Source of the DNA: a virus
Lineage: Duplodnaviria; Caudoviricetes
Strand: one strand, 5' to 3'
IMG/VR virus record: IMGVR_UViG_3300002855_000208
Coordinates: 1 to 53,655 of that record
Length of the DNA: 53,655 nt
Made by a program: the position numbers and the translations under genes. Each line of letters opens with the position of its first letter. Within the stretch, counting starts at the first letter, position 1. The notes under the pieces were generated by a model. The model searched no databases. It saw nothing but the letters and a program-made list of their open reading frames with translations, and was not told where the DNA came from. Below, one piece after another: positions 19,764 through 48,385 of this stretch.

Positions 19764-20124
19764 ATCTATATTGGCAATGGAGCCCGGGAGAGAGTTGGAC
19801 GCGTTGGTTGCTGAGAAAGTGATGGATATTCCAATAATCTGGCGTGGCCCCTACGTCGCTGGAGGACCGCTAGGACTTGGGACACCGCATAAGTATTCCA
19901 CCGACATGTCCGCAGCGTGGGAAGTGGTGGAAAAGTTCGATAAGAACACATTCAATCTAAACTGGCTTGATGGATCAAATATTTACGGAATAGGTTGGCA
20001 TTGCAAACTTGGCAACGAACACGCACATAAATGTAGTACACCAACTGAAGCCATCTGCAAAGCAGCTCTATTAACCACTCTGGAGGATGATAGGGGAGAA
20101 AAAGAAAAAGCCCCGAAGGGCTAA
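19741..20124 (+). CDS. Phage ABA-sandwich domain protein (paralog)
   Basis: PGRELDALVAEKV...YSTDMSAAWEVVEK...AICKAAL. Confidence 0.8.
   Translation: MIIVLTRESILAMEPGRELDALVAEKVMDIPIIWRGPYVAGGPLGLGTPHKYSTDMSAAWEVVEKFDKNTFNLNWLDGSNIYGIGWHCKLGNEHAHKCSTPTEAICKAALLTTLEDDRGEKEKAPKG
20101..20123 (-). terminator. Intrinsic terminator of the moron
   Basis: Minus strand AGCCC-TTCG-GGGCT followed by TTTTCTTT. Confidence 0.7.
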
Positions 20125-20588
20125 TCATCTAAGTATGGTTGATGATACTTTTCTTCACCGGCCTTTCGAGCAGCGATCGCATCATCCTTGTTAGTGTACG
20201 AACCAAGCGAAATACTTTTTCCTTGAAAACCGATGTATGCTTTCCATCGTTGTTTACTTTCTTGCCACATAACACCTTTGTGACCGCTCTTGTTAGCCTT
20301 GTGAATCTTTGCCTTAAGCGCTGTCTTCCTGGTTCCGTCAACACGGTCGGAACTTATATGTGCCCTTACTCCGCGATCACGTTTGGAATTACGCTTACAA
20401 CCGCAACTCTTATAGGTTCCAGCGCGGAGTGATCCTCCAGGAACATATATTATTTTATCGCATGAACAAATGCATTCCCAAAGCAAAGTATTGTGTTCGT
20501 TGCGATGATCCGAAAGCTTGATGACCTTCAATTCATCAAATTGTTGTCCAGTAAGGTCGATACGACGAGAGTCAACACGCTTAACCAT
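20121..20588 (-). CDS. AP2-domain DNA-binding protein
   Basis: DLTGQQF, WECICSC, SCGC, NKSGHKGV...WKAYI...LG...AIAARK. Confidence 0.85.
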   Translation of the reverse strand: MVKRVDSRRIDLTGQQFDELKVIKLSDHRNEHNTLLWECICSCDKIIYVPGGSLRAGTYKSCGCKRNSKRDRGVRAHISSDRVDGTRKTALKAKIHKANKSGHKGVMWQESKQRWKAYIGFQGKSISLGSYTNKDDAIAARKAGEEKYHQPYLDD

Positions 20589-21309: not shown

Positions 21310-21690
21310 GTGGGTACATTGCAATTAGAACTTTATCCGAGTGCAACAGAGGCAGATAAGAAAATTGCAAAAGCGCTGCTTAAAAAGTATAGAAAGAATA
21401 AGAAAATCGTTGCAGAGTTTGAACGCAAAGGAACGGGCGGGCTTGCTAAAGACCAACTAAAGATATACAATACGGCAAAGAAGCAAGCCGAGTCCGTGGA
21501 AAGTGCCGTTAGATTGATACTCGATCCGGAGATCCGCGAGATGGTCGAGCACAAGTACATCAATGGCGAGCTACGCCGGCACAAAGACACGTTAATCAGA
21601 TTCAGCACTTGGGACCAGTCAACGGTTGGTCGAAAGCTCAATGAAGGCATCGAGTCTGTTGCGGAAAGTCTTATACTTTTTAACTACTAA
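21310..21690 (+). CDS. ArpU/RinA-like late transcriptional regulator
   Basis: Size, position before late genes, sigma region 4-like C-terminus (REMVEHKYI...STVGRKLNEGIESVAE). Confidence 0.7.
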   Translation: MGTLQLELYPSATEADKKIAKALLKKYRKNKKIVAEFERKGTGGLAKDQLKIYNTAKKQAESVESAVRLILDPEIREMVEHKYINGELRRHKDTLIRFSTWDQSTVGRKLNEGIESVAESLILFNY

Positions 21691-21695
21691 AACTT

Positions 21696-21721
21696 GCACA
21701 TAATTAGCACGTTTACGGCAC
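21696..21721 (+). promoter_or_regulatory. Phased activator boxes of putative late promoter
   Basis: GCAC at 21696, 21707, 21718, exact 11-bp period. Confidence 0.55.
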
Positions 21722-21750
21722 ACGATAAGAGAATAAACCACACGTTATAT

Positions 21751-22153
21751 AGGGATACAGTAGAGTCAAATAGGGCAGACGCCCGGGCGACTCCGCTGTA
21801 TCCCTTATTACTTTGCGGACCCGGCCATGCGGTGGGAGAGTGTGCGGTCTCTCCTTAGGCGCCACCGATAAGGTGATCAGTCGCCGAGCGTGTGGAGATG
21901 GGAATGGGGTTCGAAGCCCCAAGTTTATCTTTTCTTCTCTGCGCCGGATCCATCCGTATTGGAGAAGAGGTGATAATCCTCTAAAATAAACCCCTCGACC
22001 GGCACGGTATGTATAGTGACGCATCATATCGGCGGGAGGTGGTCTATGAATGGAAGTCGAAGCGGTGAGCCTGCCGCAGAGAGCGGAAGCACATATTATA
22101 GGCAGCGGCTACAAACCGCAAAGCAGGATGGCTTAACGGCCATCCTTATTTTT
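21751..22153 (+). ncRNA. Candidate large structured non-coding RNA or late leader
   Basis: Many nested stems, no convincing ORF, ends in an intrinsic terminator. Confidence 0.5.
22125..22153 (+). terminator. Intrinsic terminator
   Basis: AGGATGGC-TTAACG-GCCATCCT followed by TATTTTT. Confidence 0.7.
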
Positions 22154-22173
22154 ATATTAGGAGGTGGCCCGCC

Positions 22174-22362
22174 GTGGTACAGGGAAAGAAGCTGCGTCGT
22201 AAGGGCGGGCTTAACCTTTATCGAGACCGTAAAATGATATTTCCGGAACTTCCGCCAGAGAAATGCATCGGCTGTCCATATGGACAGTGGAGAGATATAG
22301 TACATTACTGCCCGTGGATTACCTGTCCGAAGGAGGCCAATCATGTTAAAGCGGCTAAATAG
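22174..22362 (+). CDS. Small Cys-rich protein
   Basis: AGGAGG RBS; CIGC...CPWITC. Confidence 0.6.
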   Translation: MVQGKKLRRKGGLNLYRDRKMIFPELPPEKCIGCPYGQWRDIVHYCPWITCPKEANHVKAAK

Positions 22363-22935: not shown

Positions 22936-23268
22936 GTGAGAGATCCAATGTTGTCCGAGTTGAGAACGTGGCGAAGTGAACTTGATGGAGAATTAAGAAG
23001 TTTAGAAAACAAGTTGTCTCAAGAACGAGAGAATAAAGAACGACTTGAATTGAGAGACAGAATTCTTAACAAAGTTATCCGGGGATATAGTCGCAATGAA
23101 GAAATAGTAGAAAACTTACATGAACAACAAAGAAATGTAAAAGACAGGATAGCGGAAACAAATAACCTTATTCAAACGCTAAAAGTAGAATACGAAATAA
23201 GGTCAACGATTTTGACTCCGTTGTTGGAAGAAATACAAAATGAAATTGATAGGTATGAAGAGGATTAG
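22936..23268 (+). CDS. Coiled-coil moron protein
   Basis: AT-rich; own RBS; followed by terminator near 23267-23292. Confidence 0.6.
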   Translation: MRDPMLSELRTWRSELDGELRSLENKLSQERENKERLELRDRILNKVIRGYSRNEEIVENLHEQQRNVKDRIAETNNLIQTLKVEYEIRSTILTPLLEEIQNEIDRYEED

Positions 23269-23310
23269 CGCCAAATAGGCGCTTTTTCTTTTGCCAAAAT
23301 TGATAGCGAG

Positions 23311-23880: not shown

Positions 23881-24134
23881 TTAATTACCTTAAATCAGGT
23901 TCATAGAGAATTCATCTGAGGGCGAATGGTTAAAACCTTAGAACGATCAGTTAAAAACGAAGGAAAATGAATTCCATACAATATGTAATAAGAATAATCC
24001 TAGAGCCAGTTTTTAGGAGAAAACTAAGAAAAAAATAAGAAGCTGTCTCGGTCATTTGGGAGATAACCCGGCGTCGTAGGTACGCAAACGTCAAAACAGA
24101 CTCAATTCGGTCGGAGGTGGGGGTTGATGGACTG

Positions 24135-24887
24135 ATGTCGAAAGAGCAAAGCCCCATTCAGAAGAAGGCATTCAAACTATGGTGTGAACTCGGTAGACCT
24201 CGCAGTTCTAAGGAAATTGCCGAGAAATTGGATGTATCTCAAGAGCTCGTTCGGAAGTGGAAAAACTATTACAAGTGGACGACGCTTCCAGATCCCAAGC
24301 CGGGGGCGCCAAGAGGAAACAGAAACGCTAAGGGTAATAAAGGTGGGAATGGCGCACCGTTAGGAAATGATCGAGCCGTCAGGCATGGTCTCTTTCGGAA
24401 AATACTCCCGGACGACCAAGAAACAAGAGAAATCTTCGATGCTACTGAGGAAATGTCGGCGCTAGACATGCTTTGGTATCAAATCCGAATAGCATGGACG
24501 AACATCATGCGCTCCCAGAAGATTCAATTCGTCAAGGATAAAGACGACATGACGAAGGAAATCAAGAAAACTAAGGAAATCGACGCAGGTGGTTTCAGTA
24601 CGCTAGAGACGGATTTTGAAATCCAATTCGCTTGGGATAAGCAAGGTGTCGCTCTAACAACACAGGCAGCTGCTATGACGGCCGTTACGAGGATGCTCAA
24701 GCAATACGACGATATGTTACGAGCGCTTCCGCCTGAAGATGTTAAAGAAGAGCAACGTCAGCGTTTTGAACTGCTTAAGGCTCAGGTCGAGAAGACAAAG
24801 AACGAAGCTAAACTTGCTGGGAAAGGTCAGAATAAAGAACCTCTCCGCATCGAAATCGACTACGGCCACGAGGATAACGAGTCATGA
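24135..24887 (+). CDS. Terminase small subunit
   Basis: N-terminal HTH (VRKWK), GAPRGNRNA/GAPLGN, HGLF; precedes TerL. Confidence 0.88.
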   Translation: MSKEQSPIQKKAFKLWCELGRPRSSKEIAEKLDVSQELVRKWKNYYKWTTLPDPKPGAPRGNRNAKGNKGGNGAPLGNDRAVRHGLFRKILPDDQETREIFDATEEMSALDMLWYQIRIAWTNIMRSQKIQFVKDKDDMTKEIKKTKEIDAGGFSTLETDFEIQFAWDKQGVALTTQAAAMTAVTRMLKQYDDMLRALPPEDVKEEQRQRFELLKAQVEKTKNEAKLAGKGQNKEPLRIEIDYGHEDNES

Positions 24888-26146
24888 GCGCGGCGGTGAA
24901 AGTGCAGTTCAACCGTCATTTCATGTGGGTCAATCGCTCGCATCATCGTTACCGGGCATTGCGTGGAAGCGCGGGATCGGGAAAGTCAGTAAACATCGCT
25001 CAGGATTTCATCTTAAAGCTTGGCGATCCGAAGTATGCCGGCGCCAACCTATTGTGCGTTCGGAAGGTCAACGAGACTAACCGTAACAGCACATTCGCTG
25101 AGCTTACTGGCGCTATCAACCGTATATATGGCGAACGAGTCGATGACTATTGGGAGATTCTTCGTTCTCCGCTGACGATCCGCAGCAAGGTAACGGGCAA
25201 CGAGGTTATATTCCGCGGCATGAACGACGTTCGGGACCGGGAAAAGGTCAAATCGATCAACTTCGCTCACGGTAAACTGGTTTGGATCTGGGTAGAGGAA
25301 GCGACTGAGCTGCAGGAATCAGACGTCGATATTCTCGATGACCGGTTGCGCGGCATACTGCTGAATCCGAACCTATACTATCAGATCACATTTACGTTCA
25401 ACCCGGTATCCGCCCAACACTGGATTAAGCGAAAGTACTTCGACTACGCTAGCCCGGACGTTCTGACGCATCATTCCACCTATCGCCAGAACCGATTCAT
25501 TGATCCGGCTTACTATCGTCGGATGGAACGCCGGAAGATTGAGGACCCGGAAGGTTATGCAATCTATGGCGAAGGCGAGTGGGGCGAGCTTGGCGGCCTG
25601 ATCTTCAAGAACTTCGTCATCCACGATTTCGATACATCGTTCGATATGTTCGACAGCATGCATCACGGGCAAGATTTCGGTTTCAACCATGCAAATGCGA
25701 TTCTCACCATTGGCGTTAAAGATGGTGAGTTTTTTATTTGCTCCGAAATCTATGTGCATGAACTGCCTACGGATCAGATCATTGAAATTGCGGACAGGCA
25801 AGGGCTGAGCAAGTACCTTGCGATGTATTGCGACTCCGCTGAGCCGGACCGCATTCAAATGTGGCAGAACGCCGGGTACAACGCTTCGGCGGTCGTCAAA
25901 GAGCCGGGCAGCGTGCAGGCGCAGATTGATTATCTGAAGCAACGGAAAATCCACATCCATCCTGATTGCGTCAATACGATCAAAGAGATCCAGCAATGGT
26001 CGTGGCGCAAGGACCCGAAGACGGGCTTATATTTGGACGAGCCTGTCGGCGTATTTGATGATGCTATGGCTGCGCTCCGTTACGCTGCTGAGCCGCTGAG
26101 ACGACCAGAGATGGTATACAGCAATCAACGTCCTGCGGGATGGTAA
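24884..26146 (+). CDS. Terminase large subunit (PBSX family)
   Basis: GSAGSGKS, WVEEA, TFNP, DFG, DDAMAALRY. Confidence 0.95.
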   Translation: MSAAVKVQFNRHFMWVNRSHHRYRALRGSAGSGKSVNIAQDFILKLGDPKYAGANLLCVRKVNETNRNSTFAELTGAINRIYGERVDDYWEILRSPLTIRSKVTGNEVIFRGMNDVRDREKVKSINFAHGKLVWIWVEEATELQESDVDILDDRLRGILLNPNLYYQITFTFNPVSAQHWIKRKYFDYASPDVLTHHSTYRQNRFIDPAYYRRMERRKIEDPEGYAIYGEGEWGELGGLIFKNFVIHDFDTSFDMFDSMHHGQDFGFNHANAILTIGVKDGEFFICSEIYVHELPTDQIIEIADRQGLSKYLAMYCDSAEPDRIQMWQNAGYNASAVVKEPGSVQAQIDYLKQRKIHIHPDCVNTIKEIQQWSWRKDPKTGLYLDEPVGVFDDAMAALRYAAEPLRRPEMVYSNQRPAGW

Positions 26147-37300: not shown

Positions 37301-38728
37301 CAAGAAGAATACCAAGCTGCTCTGAAATACATCCAGTACAAAAAAGACCTGAACCAAATGAACGAAAAGCAAGAACTTGCCGCACTCGAGAGATTACAAC
37401 AGAAGTATAAAGAGATCGCCGATATCCGTATGGATCTCGAGGTAAAGGTTTACAAACTTAAAGATCAAATGCAGGCATCATCGTTCAAGGCTTCTCAAGA
37501 GTGGATCGAGCAGGAAGAACGCCGTATGACGTTGGCCGGCAAGACAGAAGAAGAAATCACGCAGATGAAGCTCGATGCATGGACCCGGGTACGCAATCGG
37601 TATCAGAAAGATTCCGAACTGTACAAACAGGCAGACACCCAGGTTTATCAAGCTAAACTGGCCCAACTCAAAGCAGCTACCAAAGCCGAGGAAGAGGCTG
37701 CTAAGGAGCGCGAAAAACTCTCGAAGGAAAACACCAAGAGAGCACTCGACGCGATCGAGAAGGCCAAGAAAGCGGAGCTCGCCGCGTTGGATGAACGTCG
37801 GAAAGCGATCGACGATTTTTACCGGGACGCTAACCGGGCGATCGACGATAAAGAGCGCTTGAAAGAGCGAAACGATCTCATTGCCGAAATGGAGAAGTAC
37901 CAATTTGCAACTTCCGAGAAGGGTCAGAAGCATTATCTCGAGTTGCAAGAGAAACTTCGGCAGATGGACATTGAGGATCAAAAGCTAGCGTTACAGGACG
38001 AGCGCGATCAGAAACTCGAAGCTTTGGACAAGGAGAAGAAAGACATCGAGTCCTGGTACGACGAGTTGAAAGACGCGACTAACGATCTGACTAAGGATCT
38101 CACTAAACTGTACAAGCTCGCTGATGACGAGAGGCTGAAATCGTTCCGGGAGACTAACGCGCTCATTATTCAGGAGATGCAGAACCTACAGCGGGAGATG
38201 TCGGGGGGCGTGCAGGTTAATGTCGGAACCTCCGGGAATTCCGGAAATTCAGGGAATGCCATTAATCCATCCGTAATCTCGCAGATGATGGCAAACAGCG
38301 CGGCGTGGTCCGGGGCTTCCGCAGCGGAAAAGCAACGCCTCGAACAAGACAACATGCGACTCGGAACGTCTCAAGGATGGATGCGCAAACCAGATGGTCA
38401 TTGGTATACACCAGATGGACAGCTCGTCTACCACACCGGGGGAATCGCGGGGGAAATGAACTTCCGATCCGCGGACAACCTTATGCCCGATGAGGTCCAA
38501 GCAGTATTGAAGCGCGGTGAGCCGGTACTGACACCGCAACAGGTCGGCAGTCTCGTGTCCGCCGGTGGAGGCGGTGCAAAAGTCACGATCGAGAAGATTG
38601 TAGGTGTTGAGATGCACGATGTTGTTATGGAGGACGAGATCGATTTGCGGGCATACGAACGGACCGGTGGAAACGAAGCCGTCGATATTCTGCGCAAGAA
38701 ATTATCTGGAGGTGGGGGCACTGGCTAA
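34391..38728 (+). CDS. Tape measure protein
   Basis: 1445 aa, helical, hydrophobic mid-segment. Confidence 0.92.
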   Translation: MTVEIGELRARLTAEASQMKQEVKSVKAEFVGLGEQGKKTAGELKDVTDAVNQVAKTKDQIAKLTASLDIVNAKIEIQQKKLAALKGSYESAFNDERKNKLQERIVNTEASLLRLTQTSDTTAQKIWSLEDSLNQLGASGNKADSSIEKLDSALKDANKQTGDFKSQLSSLNTSLSDVGLNSKQIQKINDEIKKGNPQILEQQLKSIREQLQALGVDSKEIAKITAEIDRADPKAKEHEATIKRLAIAYTALSAAIAAVIVKSVQAAASFEQDAADLAAAMNLPIEKTDELKQSIVDLSLHAKQTIPEITGTMEQLNISFGVVGSELENLTKQTLEYARANKADAAPSTSLLTRAAQALGLQYKDLPDLMDKLTYASHSSGISINELSTLIISSGPAFKQLGLNIDRQIGLFSQLYKMGSIPSEVISPLNVALNNMAQDGAMNAEEAFNALIDQIKNAPDILTATAIASDTFGSRAGAKLAGNIRAGRFEVNEWEKSIKNAGGTVERVAGTQMDTLQTATTEFKAALTAAEIEVGEKFVPTVKIATEAVTNLLLGFKDMSSANQNAVITFATVTAGVGMVATAISGLITALKLLRVAGIAAGAALGWITGIALAIGAVTAAFVKYKTEVQEAAKAQAEFNDLVSKTPYAMTTSELQTQQQNLKEVNELLEKRSRLEKEIAENQVSIHALSQARGGMSTELQEMVKKSGKLNKELTDLDKKLKVFGIDTPEKAPDVVARLNKQVNEALPALVQLERQSKQEAVSHADNTKQLMALVDEYNKLNATAKLTEEQKLRLEQVLKRLKEEYPDLQVELDKEHRAHIKNKDALNEYITAEKNRVIATGEASIKTLEIAKTEAEKRIEIAKQTLKKIEDLENGKTKSEGSGFKFDAPGLDGMRKMSDQMIKRATDAAKKEIKEQIDSETVAINDATQLIRDLSLDNWQDYITKSFSSAPDKTKAAKDGKAKTLEQIQQEEYQAALKYIQYKKDLNQMNEKQELAALERLQQKYKEIADIRMDLEVKVYKLKDQMQASSFKASQEWIEQEERRMTLAGKTEEEITQMKLDAWTRVRNRYQKDSELYKQADTQVYQAKLAQLKAATKAEEEAAKEREKLSKENTKRALDAIEKAKKAELAALDERRKAIDDFYRDANRAIDDKERLKERNDLIAEMEKYQFATSEKGQKHYLELQEKLRQMDIEDQKLALQDERDQKLEALDKEKKDIESWYDELKDATNDLTKDLTKLYKLADDERLKSFRETNALIIQEMQNLQREMSGGVQVNVGTSGNSGNSGNAINPSVISQMMANSAAWSGASAAEKQRLEQDNMRLGTSQGWMRKPDGHWYTPDGQLVYHTGGIAGEMNFRSADNLMPDEVQAVLKRGEPVLTPQQVGSLVSAGGGGAKVTIEKIVGVEMHDVVMEDEIDLRAYERTGGNEAVDILRKKLSGGGGTG

Positions 38729-46448: not shown

Positions 46449-46805
46449 ATGCAAGCATATATCGATCAAATCGTGCAGGCCCTCGTTGGCCTGCTTGTTG
46501 TTTTTGTCTTGGGAGTTGTCGCTTCCCTGAGGGTGAAGGTCAATGTGTGGCTATCGTCCAAGACGAGCGCACAGCAGCGCGAAATCCTCCATAGGATCGC
46601 CGCTGAAGGGTTTGCGCTCGTAGAGGTCACATACAAACAGATGGACGGTCCGGCGAAGTTAAACAAGGCACTTAAATACGTGAGTGATCGCGCCATATCG
46701 TACGGGCTTGATTTTTCCATTGATACGATCCGGGCCGTAGTTGAAAAGGCAGTTCTCGAGTACAACGCCAAGGTAAAAGGGAGTGGCAAGGAGCTGGGTG
46801 AATGA
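46449..46805 (+). CDS. Holin (LL-H-like)
   Basis: AGGAGG RBS; N-terminal TM; GPAKLNKA...VEKAV. Confidence 0.8.
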   Translation: MQAYIDQIVQALVGLLVVFVLGVVASLRVKVNVWLSSKTSAQQREILHRIAAEGFALVEVTYKQMDGPAKLNKALKYVSDRAISYGLDFSIDTIRAVVEKAVLEYNAKVKGSGKELGE

Positions 46806-48385
46806 TTAAGCATACTCGCGTCCGAGTTAAAGATAAGAAGTTAGAGGAAGGGCCGCTACAATATAGCGGCTCTTTTTCAAAGTCCAACGGATGGACAGAC
46901 ATCAGGGTCTTGGATATTCCGCCCGTAGCCGTTATAAAAACCGAATTAGTAATTTCCAAGGGCAAATCAGCTTCATCCATTCTTGCCGATCTAGTAGCCA
47001 AGTACGGCGGAAACTGGGTTGTGTTTAATGCGTCGTATTTTAGCTCATCCGGTGACTTGATGGGAAAAACTTTTCAAAACGGCAAGGTCATATTCCAAGA
47101 CGTGGCAGGAAAGACAGAGCAGCGCCCTCATTTGTATCGAAAGGCTGGACGTTTCGGTGTTGGACGTCAAGGCGACCCTGCGGGGATCGATTGGGCTGTC
47201 GTAGGTGTTCCGACGCTAACGGCCGGAGGAAAGGCAATCAATCCACCAAGAGCAGAAGAAAAGACACCGCCAGACGTGCCGGGCGTTAACCCTCGCATGA
47301 TCGCCGGAATCAAAGCAGACGGAACGCTTGGCATTATTGCGGTGGATGGTCGAGGAAGCTCGGATCGGGGATTAACAACCGAGGAATCCGGTATTATGGC
47401 GATCTCTCTCGGTTATGCCGATTCGATAAATCTGGACGGTGGAGGATCCTCGACGATCGCCACAAATAATCGCCAGTTGCTCGATGCTCTCGAGATCGAC
47501 AAGACCAATAAAAAGCGCAATTATCATGTTAGCGACATAAGCCAAAATCAAGTTCAACGTATTATTCAACATGCCGTTGCGATTCAATTCGATCCGGCCG
47601 TTCTATTCCCTAAGCCGAATACGCTATTCGGGATTGATTGTGCCAACCCACTCAAAACGGTCACGGCAAAGGCGGTAGCTGCCGAAGGCGCTAAGTTTGC
47701 CGTTCGCTATTTGGTGCCGCCAGCTTATGCATGGAAGCGCCTCACGCGCCCGGAAGTCGACGCCATTCAAGGCGCCGGAATGAAGGTGGCTTCGGTCTTC
47801 CAAAAAGGCACTGATCGTGTAACGGGTGGAAAAAGTGCCGGTCAAGTGGATGGCCGGGAGGCTTTCGCCGAGGCAAAACTTATTAATCAGCCGCTCGGCA
47901 GCGCGATCTTCTTCGCAGTGGACTATGATGCACATCCGAAGGATTATGACGCTATAGAGGCTTACCTTCGCGCAGCTCAAGCGGAGATCCTGGGATATCA
48001 TGCCGGCGTATACGGTCATTATGCTGTAATCGAGGAAATGGCTAAACGTGAGGCATGCAAATACTTCTGGCAGACTTATGCTTGGTCTGGCGGCAAGAAG
48101 AGCGACAAGGCGCACTTGTACCAATACAAAAATGATACTAAACTCGGCGGTGTCTCCGTGGATTTCAACGAGGCTTACACTGAAGAGATTTTCTGGAATG
48201 AAAAGAAGGTGGAGCCGGTGGAGAAGTCAGCGAATAATGACGTAACCGCTATTGTATTTGGAAAGAAGATCGAAGGAGCAATCGTTATTGACGGCGTTAC
48301 GCTGCTACCTTTACGAGCTGTAGGGAATGCGATCGGCGGCAAGGTTACATGGGATCAGAAAACCATGACTGCAACAATCGAGTAA
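46802..48385 (+). CDS. Endolysin: phosphodiester glycosidase (NAGPA-like), DUF1906/GH25-like and C-terminal surface domain
   Basis: FNASYF, NPR, VDGR, NLDGGGSS; FAVRYL, FFAVDYD, GVYG, WQTYAWS; LPLRAVG...VTWD. Confidence 0.8.
   Translation: MIKHTRVRVKDKKLEEGPLQYSGSFSKSNGWTDIRVLDIPPVAVIKTELVISKGKSASSILADLVAKYGGNWVVFNASYFSSSGDLMGKTFQNGKVIFQDVAGKTEQRPHLYRKAGRFGVGRQGDPAGIDWAVVGVPTLTAGGKAINPPRAEEKTPPDVPGVNPRMIAGIKADGTLGIIAVDGRGSSDRGLTTEESGIMAISLGYADSINLDGGGSSTIATNNRQLLDALEIDKTNKKRNYHVSDISQNQVQRIIQHAVAIQFDPAVLFPKPNTLFGIDCANPLKTVTAKAVAAEGAKFAVRYLVPPAYAWKRLTRPEVDAIQGAGMKVASVFQKGTDRVTGGKSAGQVDGREAFAEAKLINQPLGSAIFFAVDYDAHPKDYDAIEAYLRAAQAEILGYHAGVYGHYAVIEEMAKREACKYFWQTYAWSGGKKSDKAHLYQYKNDTKLGGVSVDFNEAYTEEIFWNEKKVEPVEKSANNDVTAIVFGKKIEGAIVIDGVTLLPLRAVGNAIGGKVTWDQKTMTATIE

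Follow-up and report, generated by a model that had tools for sequence, protein, structure and literature searches.

The gap between activator gene and late operon

The sequence analysed, hereafter referred to as the window, covers a provirus record of IMG/VR in full (53,655 bases). It contains a stretch of 483 nt, located between the ORF at 21310-21690 and the ORF at 22174-22362, in which we found no convincing gene (Table 1). ORFs that overlap this stretch (21813-21989, and 22016-22237 of 73 aa) had no match in Pfam or PHROG, and the loops of two helices in the RNA described below, P3 and P4, vary in length among homologs by amounts that are not divisible by three. Both observations speak against a hidden ORF, which a preceding sequence-only reading of this DNA had named as a finding that would refute its own interpretation. 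The other apparent gap, at 14.4-16.6 kb, turned out to be full of small + strand ORFs, in agreement with the claim of that reading that long gene-free stretches are rare in this genome.

Table 1. Coordinates of the features in and around the 483-nt stretch (MFE, minimum-free-energy).
Feature	Position	Strand	Description
Late activator candidate, 126 aa	21310-21690	+	phrog_21810, PHROG E 3.6e-25
Five 11-bp-phased direct repeats, candidate activator sites	21690-21744	+	..TTGCACA, ..TAGCACG, ..CGGCACA, one degenerate, ..CCACACG
H0, long 5' hairpin	21751-21805	+	Inner hairpin 21773-21784
TACAGT, -10-like TAnnnT hexamer	21756-21761	+	11 nt after the last repeat
EAR/epsC-type RNA core	21786-21920	+	RF01735 match; covariation in P2, P3, P4 and the pseudoknot pairing
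EAR tail	21786-91	+	RF01735 model positions 1-6
P1	21792-96/21815-19	+	5 bp in the window
P2	21820-31/21889-96+21899-902	+	CCATGCG/CGTGTGG junction of the sequence-only reading
P3	21834-41/21848-55	+	GGAGAG/CTCTCC
P4	21858-61/21882-85	+	GGCG/CGCC, with an inserted CACC/GGTG hairpin at 21863-75
P5	21906-20	+	T-arm-like hairpin
Conserved 3' hairpin	21925-21976	+	21925-42 with 21959-76; inner CCGG/TCCG, 21945-48 with 21953-56
Poorly conserved hairpin-rich spacer	21977-22124	+	Hairpins in the MFE fold
Intrinsic terminator	22125-22155	+	Hairpin 22125-22146 with a 9-bp stem including 5 G-C pairs, then the T-rich tail TATTTTTAT; just before the first late gene
Late operon	22174-48414	+	Pfam and PHROG names; small Cys-rich ORF, terS 24117-24887, terL 24884-26146, portal, head, tape measure, tail, endolysin 46802-48385

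The sequence-only reading had described the region as a series of consecutive stems, all of which could be read directly in the sequence and most of which were also present in the MFE fold. The long 5' hairpin pairs AGGGATACAG.AGAGTC with GACTC.GCTGTATCCCT and holds GGGC-AGAC-GCCC inside. It is followed by a junction closed by CCATGCG/CGTGTGG that contains GGAGAG/CTCTCC and GGCG..CACC/GGTG..CGCC, and then by a T-arm-like hairpin, GGGGTTCGAAGCCCC (21906-21920). A scan of the 53,655-nt window for tRNA and tmRNA genes identified none, and the T-arm-like hairpin was rejected as part of a tRNA since it corresponds to helix P5 of the EAR RNA. The stem TCTTCTC/GAGAAGA proved to be a section of the longer 3' hairpin, and TCGAC/GTCGA, which can be read as sequence, was absent from the MFE fold and had no comparative support.

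The 483 nt at 21691-22173 folded with a z-score of -3.55 on the + strand and -4.40 on the - strand, and none of 100 shuffles was as good on either strand. Since both strands fold better than their shuffles, the energy alone shows neither function nor strand. The earlier picture of one structured RNA of about 400 nt did not hold. Rather, the region is a composite of repeats and a promoter-like hexamer at the DNA level, a masking or terminator-like hairpin, an EAR core, a 3' hairpin, a run of about 150 nt in which the hairpins are poorly conserved, and a terminator.

The 3' hairpin was recovered by RNAalifold from seven sequences of the window's clade, with 24 pairs of which 10 had changed on both sides, and was also present in the MFE fold. 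The sequence of the spacer that follows could be aligned by eye only with the closest relative, L002. A strict purpose-made finder, applied to 40 related loci, placed a terminator-like site no more than 500 nt beyond P5 in 28 of them. Strong intergenic terminator-like hairpins on the + strand were also located at 23267, 28845, 31155, 33643, 42588 and 48393, and a late operon with this many terminators is a setting in which a processive antiterminator would be useful.

The 126-aa protein encoded upstream of the region is a candidate Ltr/ArpU/RinA-type regulator as judged from its position and the C-terminal fold of its model. It matched no model in Pfam or NCBIfam, including TIGR01637 (ArpU) and TIGR01636 (RinA). 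For an AF2 model with a pLDDT of 84.7, the best fold matches in the PDB were to region 4 of ECF sigma factors (TM 0.68-0.72, target; rmsd 2.5-3.2 over 70-81 columns), but these were weak (E 0.25-1.5), and Foldseek reported nothing at E <= 0.001. A search of PDB sequences with the activator profile yielded the sigma factor 8x6g_H at E 0.022. Bona fide Ltr members were present upstream of two EAR loci, one of the RinA family in L058 (65.8 bits) and one of the ArpU family in L062 (83.9 bits). The latter gave a pairwise BLASTP E value of 0.008 over 26 residues with the window protein. The sequence-only reading had labelled the gene ArpU-like, which fits its position, shared with the Ltr activators, and the repeats that follow it, but not the protein itself, which reaches no ArpU or RinA model.

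The EAR/epsC core RNA and its distribution

A scan of the whole window against Rfam yielded a match to RF01735 (epsC) at 21786-21920 on the + strand, with 48.7 bits (gathering score 42 bits), E 3.1e-5, and model positions 1-117 covered. The sequence-only reading had found no Rfam family to assign, and was mistaken on this point, as the model matches over its full length and above the gathering score. RF01735 was the sole family matched in the window; weak rows for pemK, isrG and a trypanosome snoRNA were far below their cut-offs and were dismissed. The score is only 6.7 bits over the cut-off, as compared to 90-115 bits for chromosomal copies, because of insertions in P3 and P4. The pseudoknot, formed by the 5' tail and the P1 loop, has three pairs in the window instead of four.

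The epsC motif of Weinberg et al. 2010 was independently found as EAR, for which antitermination activity is reported (PMC2864571). According to a review citing Irnov and Winkler 2010, EAR is required for transcription of the whole operon, and the B. subtilis EAR antiterminates distal as well as heterologous terminators (PMC7858274).

We estimated covariation from a MAFFT alignment of 38 phage-type sequences. The Rfam helices together with the outer helix of the 5' hairpin were paired in 93.6% of the cells, as compared to 41-54% when the partners were slid by 1-3 columns. Changes on both sides were observed for 13 pairs in 118 cells, a level reached by 0 of 500 shuffles, which ignore the relatedness of the sequences. 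Six of the double-changed pairs were in P2 (94.3% paired), four in P3 and one in P4 (A-U in 20 sequences, G-C in 18), while P5 was 93.7% paired. For the pseudoknot, 98.7% of the cells were paired and two pairs had double changes, the same disregard of relatedness applying to the shuffles. Ten further loci carried the P4 variant GACGU/AUCGUC instead of GACGC/GUCGUC. Two pairs, at alignment columns 108-178 and 113-137, were G-U in 38 of 38 sequences. As these would be A-C on the other strand, the + strand is the RNA strand, which upholds the earlier suggestion that G-U pairs favour this strand. Two of the checks proposed in the sequence-only reading, a search of Rfam and a covariation analysis of homologs, gave a positive outcome, the former with RF01735 on the + strand and the latter with core helices that covary across the 38 phage-type homologs.

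We also compared the pairing of cognate arms with that of arms swapped between sequences, using 37 distinct sequences and 5000 shuffles, uncorrected for relatedness. For P1, the longest run was 5.51 with cognate and 3.96 with swapped arms (0/5000 shuffles), and for the pseudoknot the values were 3.95 and 3.87 (4/5000). Compensation in P1 could be seen between close relatives, CCUAC/GUAGG in L202 versus CCUGC/GCAGG in L210, and the window's clade has CCGC/GCGG. In the pseudoknot, GGGU/ACCC is replaced by AGGC/GCCU in L072 and by AGGA/UCCU in L068.

Dozens of (pro)viruses in IMG/VR, as well as Paenibacillus genomes, had this RNA 3' of the same small activator gene. Homologs of the 126-aa protein were identified in five IMG/VR contigs (48-93% identity), and all five of these protein-first viral loci contained RF01735 at 55-73 bits, about 95 nt after the gene and on the same strand. 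A DNA pattern for the core recovered 38 viral contigs, including the five from the protein search, and 31 of the 37 records searched were above the RF01735 cut-off. One of the 31, L045, is a regular eps-type copy from a chromosome, located at the border of a provirus record. With a second DNA pattern, designed on the 5' hairpin, we obtained 16 new contigs, 10 of which contained the RNA over the cut-off; the other six were chance matches in coding DNA and were discarded. BLAST links placed the window's protein in one family with the product of the ORF ending about 85-100 nt upstream of the RNA in 26 of 31 EAR loci (30 and the window).

In the bacterial family to which Paenibacillus selenitireducens belongs, the activator family was present in 86 of 401 sampled genomes, and RF01735 in 102 of 151, mostly as eps-type copies of 90-115 bits. 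RF01735 was located just downstream of the activator homolog in 8 of the best 12 protein-first bacterial loci and was absent from the remaining 4, which suggests that the activator works without EAR in some phages. Identical layouts were found in L107 and L144, which are contigs of Paenibacillus selenitireducens and P. daejeonensis. The RNA had the same placement in all loci examined, after the activator gene and before the late genes, on the coding strand. The copy in the window is flanked by the phage activator gene on one side and the terS, terL, portal, head, tail and lysin genes on the other, and not by an exopolysaccharide or capsule operon. The missing polysaccharide-operon location is a feature of the context and not of the RNA.

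Searches of GenBank phage records gave no match to the leader (blastn, three queries) or to the activator (tblastn), and for terL only relatives of 60-71% were found, in Bacillus and Clostridioides phages. Among the abstracts and text passages searched, no paper placed an EAR/epsC RNA in a phage, and EAR was described there only in polysaccharide operons of Bacillales.

By model match and covariation, the core of the region is a phage member of the EAR/epsC RNA family in a previously undescribed setting. In common with EAR of B. subtilis and other Bacillales (RF01735), it has a full-length match above the cut-off, the helices P1-P5, a tail-to-loop pseudoknot and the conserved loop core UACC(G/C)UUAUCA, and it is located upstream of several intrinsic terminators in a long operon. 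It differs in being located in a prophage late operon, where it is preceded by a phage activator gene and a repeat array, and in having a masking 5' hairpin, a conserved 3' hairpin, the insertions in P3 and P4 and a lower score.

Repeat array, promoter-like hexamer and 5' hairpin

The repeat array begins at the last base of the activator stop codon. Every clade contained four or five direct repeats upstream of H0 with a period of 11 bp, and this period was the best in 36 of 38 distinct upstream regions, with a mean hexamer identity of 4.07 of 6 as compared to 1.9-2.05 at periods 9, 10, 12 and 13. The repeat motif is clade-dependent, TGCACG-like in the window and TGCGAC, TGTCCA or TGACGG elsewhere. 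The distance from the array to the TACAGT hexamer is fixed, usually at exactly 11 nt after the last repeat, with phase 0 in 18 of 38 regions and an offset of 1-2 nt in most others. Within the hexamer, the T, A, C and final T were invariant in 38 of 38 sequences, even where the pairing partners have changed, and the variants TACCAT and TACATT retain the TAnnnT pattern. The 11-nt spacer before the hexamer is A/T-rich and TATA-like in some loci including the window, and is CAGGAGCAGGG, TGGAAGCAAGG or CGAAACAGGGG in several loci.

This layout resembles that of phages with Ltr activators (RinA, ArpU, LtrA, LtrB, LtrC) and terS promoters, in which a small activator gene precedes the late genes and repeats follow directly after its stop codon. 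As described in PMC3753634, the direct repeats just after the ltr gene are proven binding sites for RinA, ArpU and LtrC. In staphylococcal and enterococcal phages these repeats are both necessary and sufficient for the activator to bind, and in the studied Ltr phages a terminator separates ltr from the late promoter (PMC3753634). The region differs from these systems in that the window's protein reaches no RinA or ArpU model. The main text of PMC3753634 does not mention antitermination (0 occurrences), and no comparable leader RNA is described there.

With TACAGT as the -10 element, late transcription would start near 21768, inside H0 and just before its inner hairpin, and the late RNA would not include the 5' arm of H0. 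The best support for a start inside the hairpin comes from two loci without EAR. In L261, the same array and the same 11-nt spacer lead to a TACAGT that forms part of the 5' arm of a hairpin (-29.8 kcal/mol, z -7.5). This hairpin is followed by U7 and in form is a canonical terminator. A late transcript that started upstream of it would be terminated at once. In L260, a different and unrelated hairpin is associated with the same array, and TAAAGT is located at the same spacing.

H0 was the MFE fold in 39 of 40 phage-type loci, with energies of -24 to -43 kcal/mol. Among 60 EAR-bearing loci in bacterial genomes, H0 was observed only in the phage-type locus L107. Its 3' arm comprises the EAR tail, the 5' strand of P1 and the P1 (pseudoknot) loop, so that H0 and P1/pseudoknot are mutually exclusive. 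H0 is far more stable than P1 and the pseudoknot combined, and RNA folded from 21745 formed H0 and not P1, whereas RNA folded from 21769 formed P1. With H0 in place, the MFE fold still contained P2-P5.

The outer helix of H0 was paired in 93.4% of the cells, but its sequence is near-invariant and only one of its 10 pairs had changed on both sides, such that the support for this helix comes mostly from conservation together with a few compensations. In the arm-swap comparison, again uncorrected for relatedness, cognate and swapped arms scored 9.32 and 9.08 for the outer helix (1/5000 shuffles), 5.00 and 4.24 for the middle part (0/5000), and 5.05 and 4.08 for the inner hairpin (0/5000). Compensations include CCAU/AUGG in L058 and one additional A-U pair that the window shares with L069 (GGGAUACAG/CUGUAUCCC). 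Both folds, H0 and P1/pseudoknot, seem to have been kept by selection.

There is no terminator between the activator gene and the array, and transcripts from the activator gene must therefore run into H0. The tail after H0 is moderately U-rich, with at least five T in eight positions in 14 of 38 loci and five in the window, which suggests that masking may matter more than termination in loci that carry EAR.

A proposed leader mechanism and its alternatives

We consider it likely that the region is a cis-acting antitermination leader of the EAR type and serves as the control region of the prophage late operon. A leader of this kind at the head of the late genes was the second of two alternatives in the sequence-only reading, and is now supported by the EAR/epsC membership and the genomic context. 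We infer a start at the late promoter, an active RNA and a function for H0; by analogy with the B. subtilis EAR, the core probably lets RNA polymerase ignore terminators across the 26-kb late operon. In the proposed sequence of events, the upstream-encoded activator would bind the five phased repeats and turn on a late promoter with TACAGT as its -10 element. The nascent leader would then fold into the EAR structure, with P1-P5 and the pseudoknot, and would render the transcribing polymerase resistant to intrinsic terminators, as for the B. subtilis EAR. This would enable the polymerase to run through the 22125 terminator and then, over about 26 kb up to the endolysin gene, through six or more others. 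Transcripts from the activator gene would carry both arms of H0, by which the EAR tail, the P1 strand and the pseudoknot loop would be locked away, and H0 may itself terminate read-through from this gene. Late-promoter transcripts would start inside H0 and, without the 5' arm, adopt the active EAR fold.

We give about even chances to the more specific proposal that H0 is a dual-use insulator, with a 5' arm that provides the -10 and start site of the late promoter in the DNA and that in read-through RNA masks EAR or ends the transcript, and that L260 and L261 use the same promoter-in-terminator design in front of a second leader RNA, one with no Rfam match. The explicit conflict between H0 and P1/pseudoknot and the model of a promoter inside the hairpin, with its EAR-less counterparts, are new to this study.

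The main alternative, which we regard as rather unlikely, is that late transcription starts from a promoter upstream of 21751 and covers the whole leader with both H0 arms, such that H0 is present in the working RNA and P2-P5 still antiterminate. H0 could then replace P1 and the pseudoknot, be a 5' stabiliser or RNase III site, or act as a switch opened by a factor from phage or host. The retention of H0 as a stable fold in nearly all phage-type loci, the presence of P2-P5 in the MFE fold even with H0 and the TATA-like spacer in some loci including the window are all consistent with such a promoter. However, the compensations in P1 and the pseudoknot of the phage copies are unexpected if these pairings never form, the A/T-rich spacer is not general, as seen from CAGGAGCAGGG, TGGAAGCAAGG and CGAAACAGGGG, and the U7-tailed terminator that is homologous to H0 in L261 would stop transcripts with two arms. 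If late transcripts did carry the 5' arm, there would be no canonical EAR fold, and the RNA would work differently or need a factor. The two mutually exclusive folds, both apparently under selection, could also indicate a switch in which a ligand or protein chooses between H0 and EAR, and epsC is listed among the riboswitch candidates of Weinberg et al. 2010 (PMC2864571). Yet the same paper considers that antitermination probably occurs via the elongation complex and that the motif may not bind a metabolite (PMC2864571), the chromosomal eps-type copies have no H0, indicating that the alternative fold is not a feature of the family, and no candidate ligand or binding protein emerged from our analyses, all of which make a switch quite improbable.

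It is very improbable that the region encodes independent small RNAs, one or several, that end at the 22125 terminator or past H0 and act in trans (with host or phage targets, or as an RNA polymerase decoy) rather than in cis on late transcription. The terminator that closes the leader does predict an RNA of about 360-400 nt when antitermination fails, as for other terminated late leaders, and the 3' hairpin and the spacer have no assigned role, but the family of the core is known to act in cis and the invariable placement of the RNA on the coding strand, between activator and late genes in the loci examined, argues for the same here. Least probable of all, to an extreme degree, is that the region consists of DNA-level signals near the terminase genes, such as a packaging site, an origin or recombination sites, or of a hidden small gene. 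Its location 2 kb upstream of terS, the equally good folding of the minus strand by energy and the small ORFs that overlap it would fit with these ideas. Speaking against them are the invariant G-U pairs and the strand-specific Rfam match, the out-of-frame variation in loop length and the ORFs without family match, and the repeats, which are better explained as activator sites.

The EAR-type leader that we favour has functional counterparts in other mobile elements. The put RNA of phage HK022 is likewise a nascent phage RNA that alone makes RNA polymerase resist pausing and termination, as described in PMC9378689 and PMC11658703. It differs in consisting of two stem-loops unrelated in sequence and structure and in serving the early operons of a phage of E. 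coli; no Rfam match of the put type was present in the window, and the likeness is functional only. The conAn system of plasmid pLS20 and canT of Tn916 are likewise processive antitermination systems that include an RNA component and stand at the start of long operons in mobile elements of Firmicutes (PMC8191782; PMC11658703). They belong to conjugative elements and not to phages, and conAn needs a protein partner. With the Q/qut/tR' system of lambda, the region shares the logic of a late promoter with a terminator close behind it and of a very long late operon made accessible by processive antitermination. However, Q is a protein that is loaded at a DNA site in the promoter and derives its promoter specificity from this, whereas the agent here is an RNA, for which promoter specificity would come from the start site inside the masking hairpin.

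To our knowledge, EAR is one of very few RNAs that reprogram bacterial RNA polymerase by themselves. If the proposed mechanism is correct, such an RNA-only antiterminator gains specificity for the promoter of origin, which lambda achieves by loading Q at the promoter. A covarying EAR branch in prophage late operons would represent a Gram-positive phage RNA counterpart of lambda Q and HK022 put, and would account for transcription through the many terminators of Ltr-activated late operons. With promoter, terminator or mask, and antiterminator overlapping, the region would also constitute a compact and testable design that could be reused as a genetic part, and the dozens of natural variants provide material for working out how EAR acts on the polymerase.

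Leader variants at the head of the late genes

Two related loci, L260 and L261, match the loci bearing EAR (the epsC RNA, Rfam RF01735) in activator family, in repeat array and in having the candidate promoter inside a hairpin, and are without EAR itself. A different leader sequence, conserved between the two, follows the hairpin (L261:1980-2100 and L260:1955-2090). This post-hairpin leader includes a T-loop-like GGTTCAGAT and gave no matches to Rfam even at E <= 1; it may represent a second class of late-leader RNA.

Another variant was seen in L062, a locus with an ArpU-family activator upstream, where H0, the phage-specific 5' hairpin, is absent and the EAR tail is sequestered by a different hairpin. 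The hexamer TAAACT is located at the start of the 5' arm of that hairpin and is preceded by repeats of GGA(C/T)AAAA. Judged by eye, L062 would appear to be the same design made from different sequence.

The region 3' of EAR and the neighbouring genes

Many phage-type loci, in which EAR is located at the head of prophage late genes, contained a hairpin, GAAGGG(C)UUGUCCCUUC, directly 3' of P5, the 3'-most EAR helix, and then a U-rich run. The CUUGUCCC loop of this hairpin is conserved, and the hairpin competes with the long 3' hairpin. Together with the U-rich run it looks terminator-like; it does not occur in the window. Some loci contained tRNA-like fragments 3' of EAR, in the form of T-arm pieces.

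The integrase-family gene of the window lies inside the late region, with the leader before it and terS after it. The product of the first late ORF yielded no family matches and is kept 3' of the terminator in L002 and L003. The HNH endonuclease gene is found a short distance before the activator gene, on the opposite strand.

Features of the late-gene control region and its surroundings, in the window unless placed relative to P5
Feature	Position	Strand	Details
HNH endonuclease with AP2-like domain	20121-20588	-	phrog_374, E 5.8e-28
First late ORF, 62-aa Cys-rich protein	22174-22362	+	CxxC ... CxxxxC
Terminator-like hairpin	23267-23283	+	just 5' of the integrase-family gene
Short tyrosine-recombinase/integrase-family protein, 189 aa	23311-23880	+	Pfam Phage_integrase, E 4.6e-16; phrog_216, E 4e-58
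GAAGGG(C)UUGUCCCUUC hairpin	3-20 nt 3' of P5 (L063, L068, L071, L072)		L063, L068, L071, L072; also in many other loci, directly 3' of P5
tRNA-like T-arm pieces GGTTCGAATCC / GGTTCAACTCC	~20-70 nt 3' of P5		L210, L052

Chromosomal and additional EAR copies

Many EAR copies of the chromosomal eps type have GTTCTTTATAAAGAAC-type palindromes within ~60 nt upstream (among them L079, L081, L088, L091, L112, L128 and L140). These palindromes resemble SinR operator half-sites, so that the EAR of these species would belong to the leader of an eps promoter under repressor control.

Two copies on Paenibacillus chromosomes (L102 and L146) display the phage-type P1 and loop, with CCUAC..GUAGG and CUGUACC or CUGCACC. 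The 5' arm of H0 is absent from both, as is an activator gene nearby, and these copies may be displaced or domesticated phage elements. In the viral record G006, the main epsC match is accompanied at a distance of ~2.5 kb by another that scores below threshold (38493-38602, minus strand; 32.9 bits).
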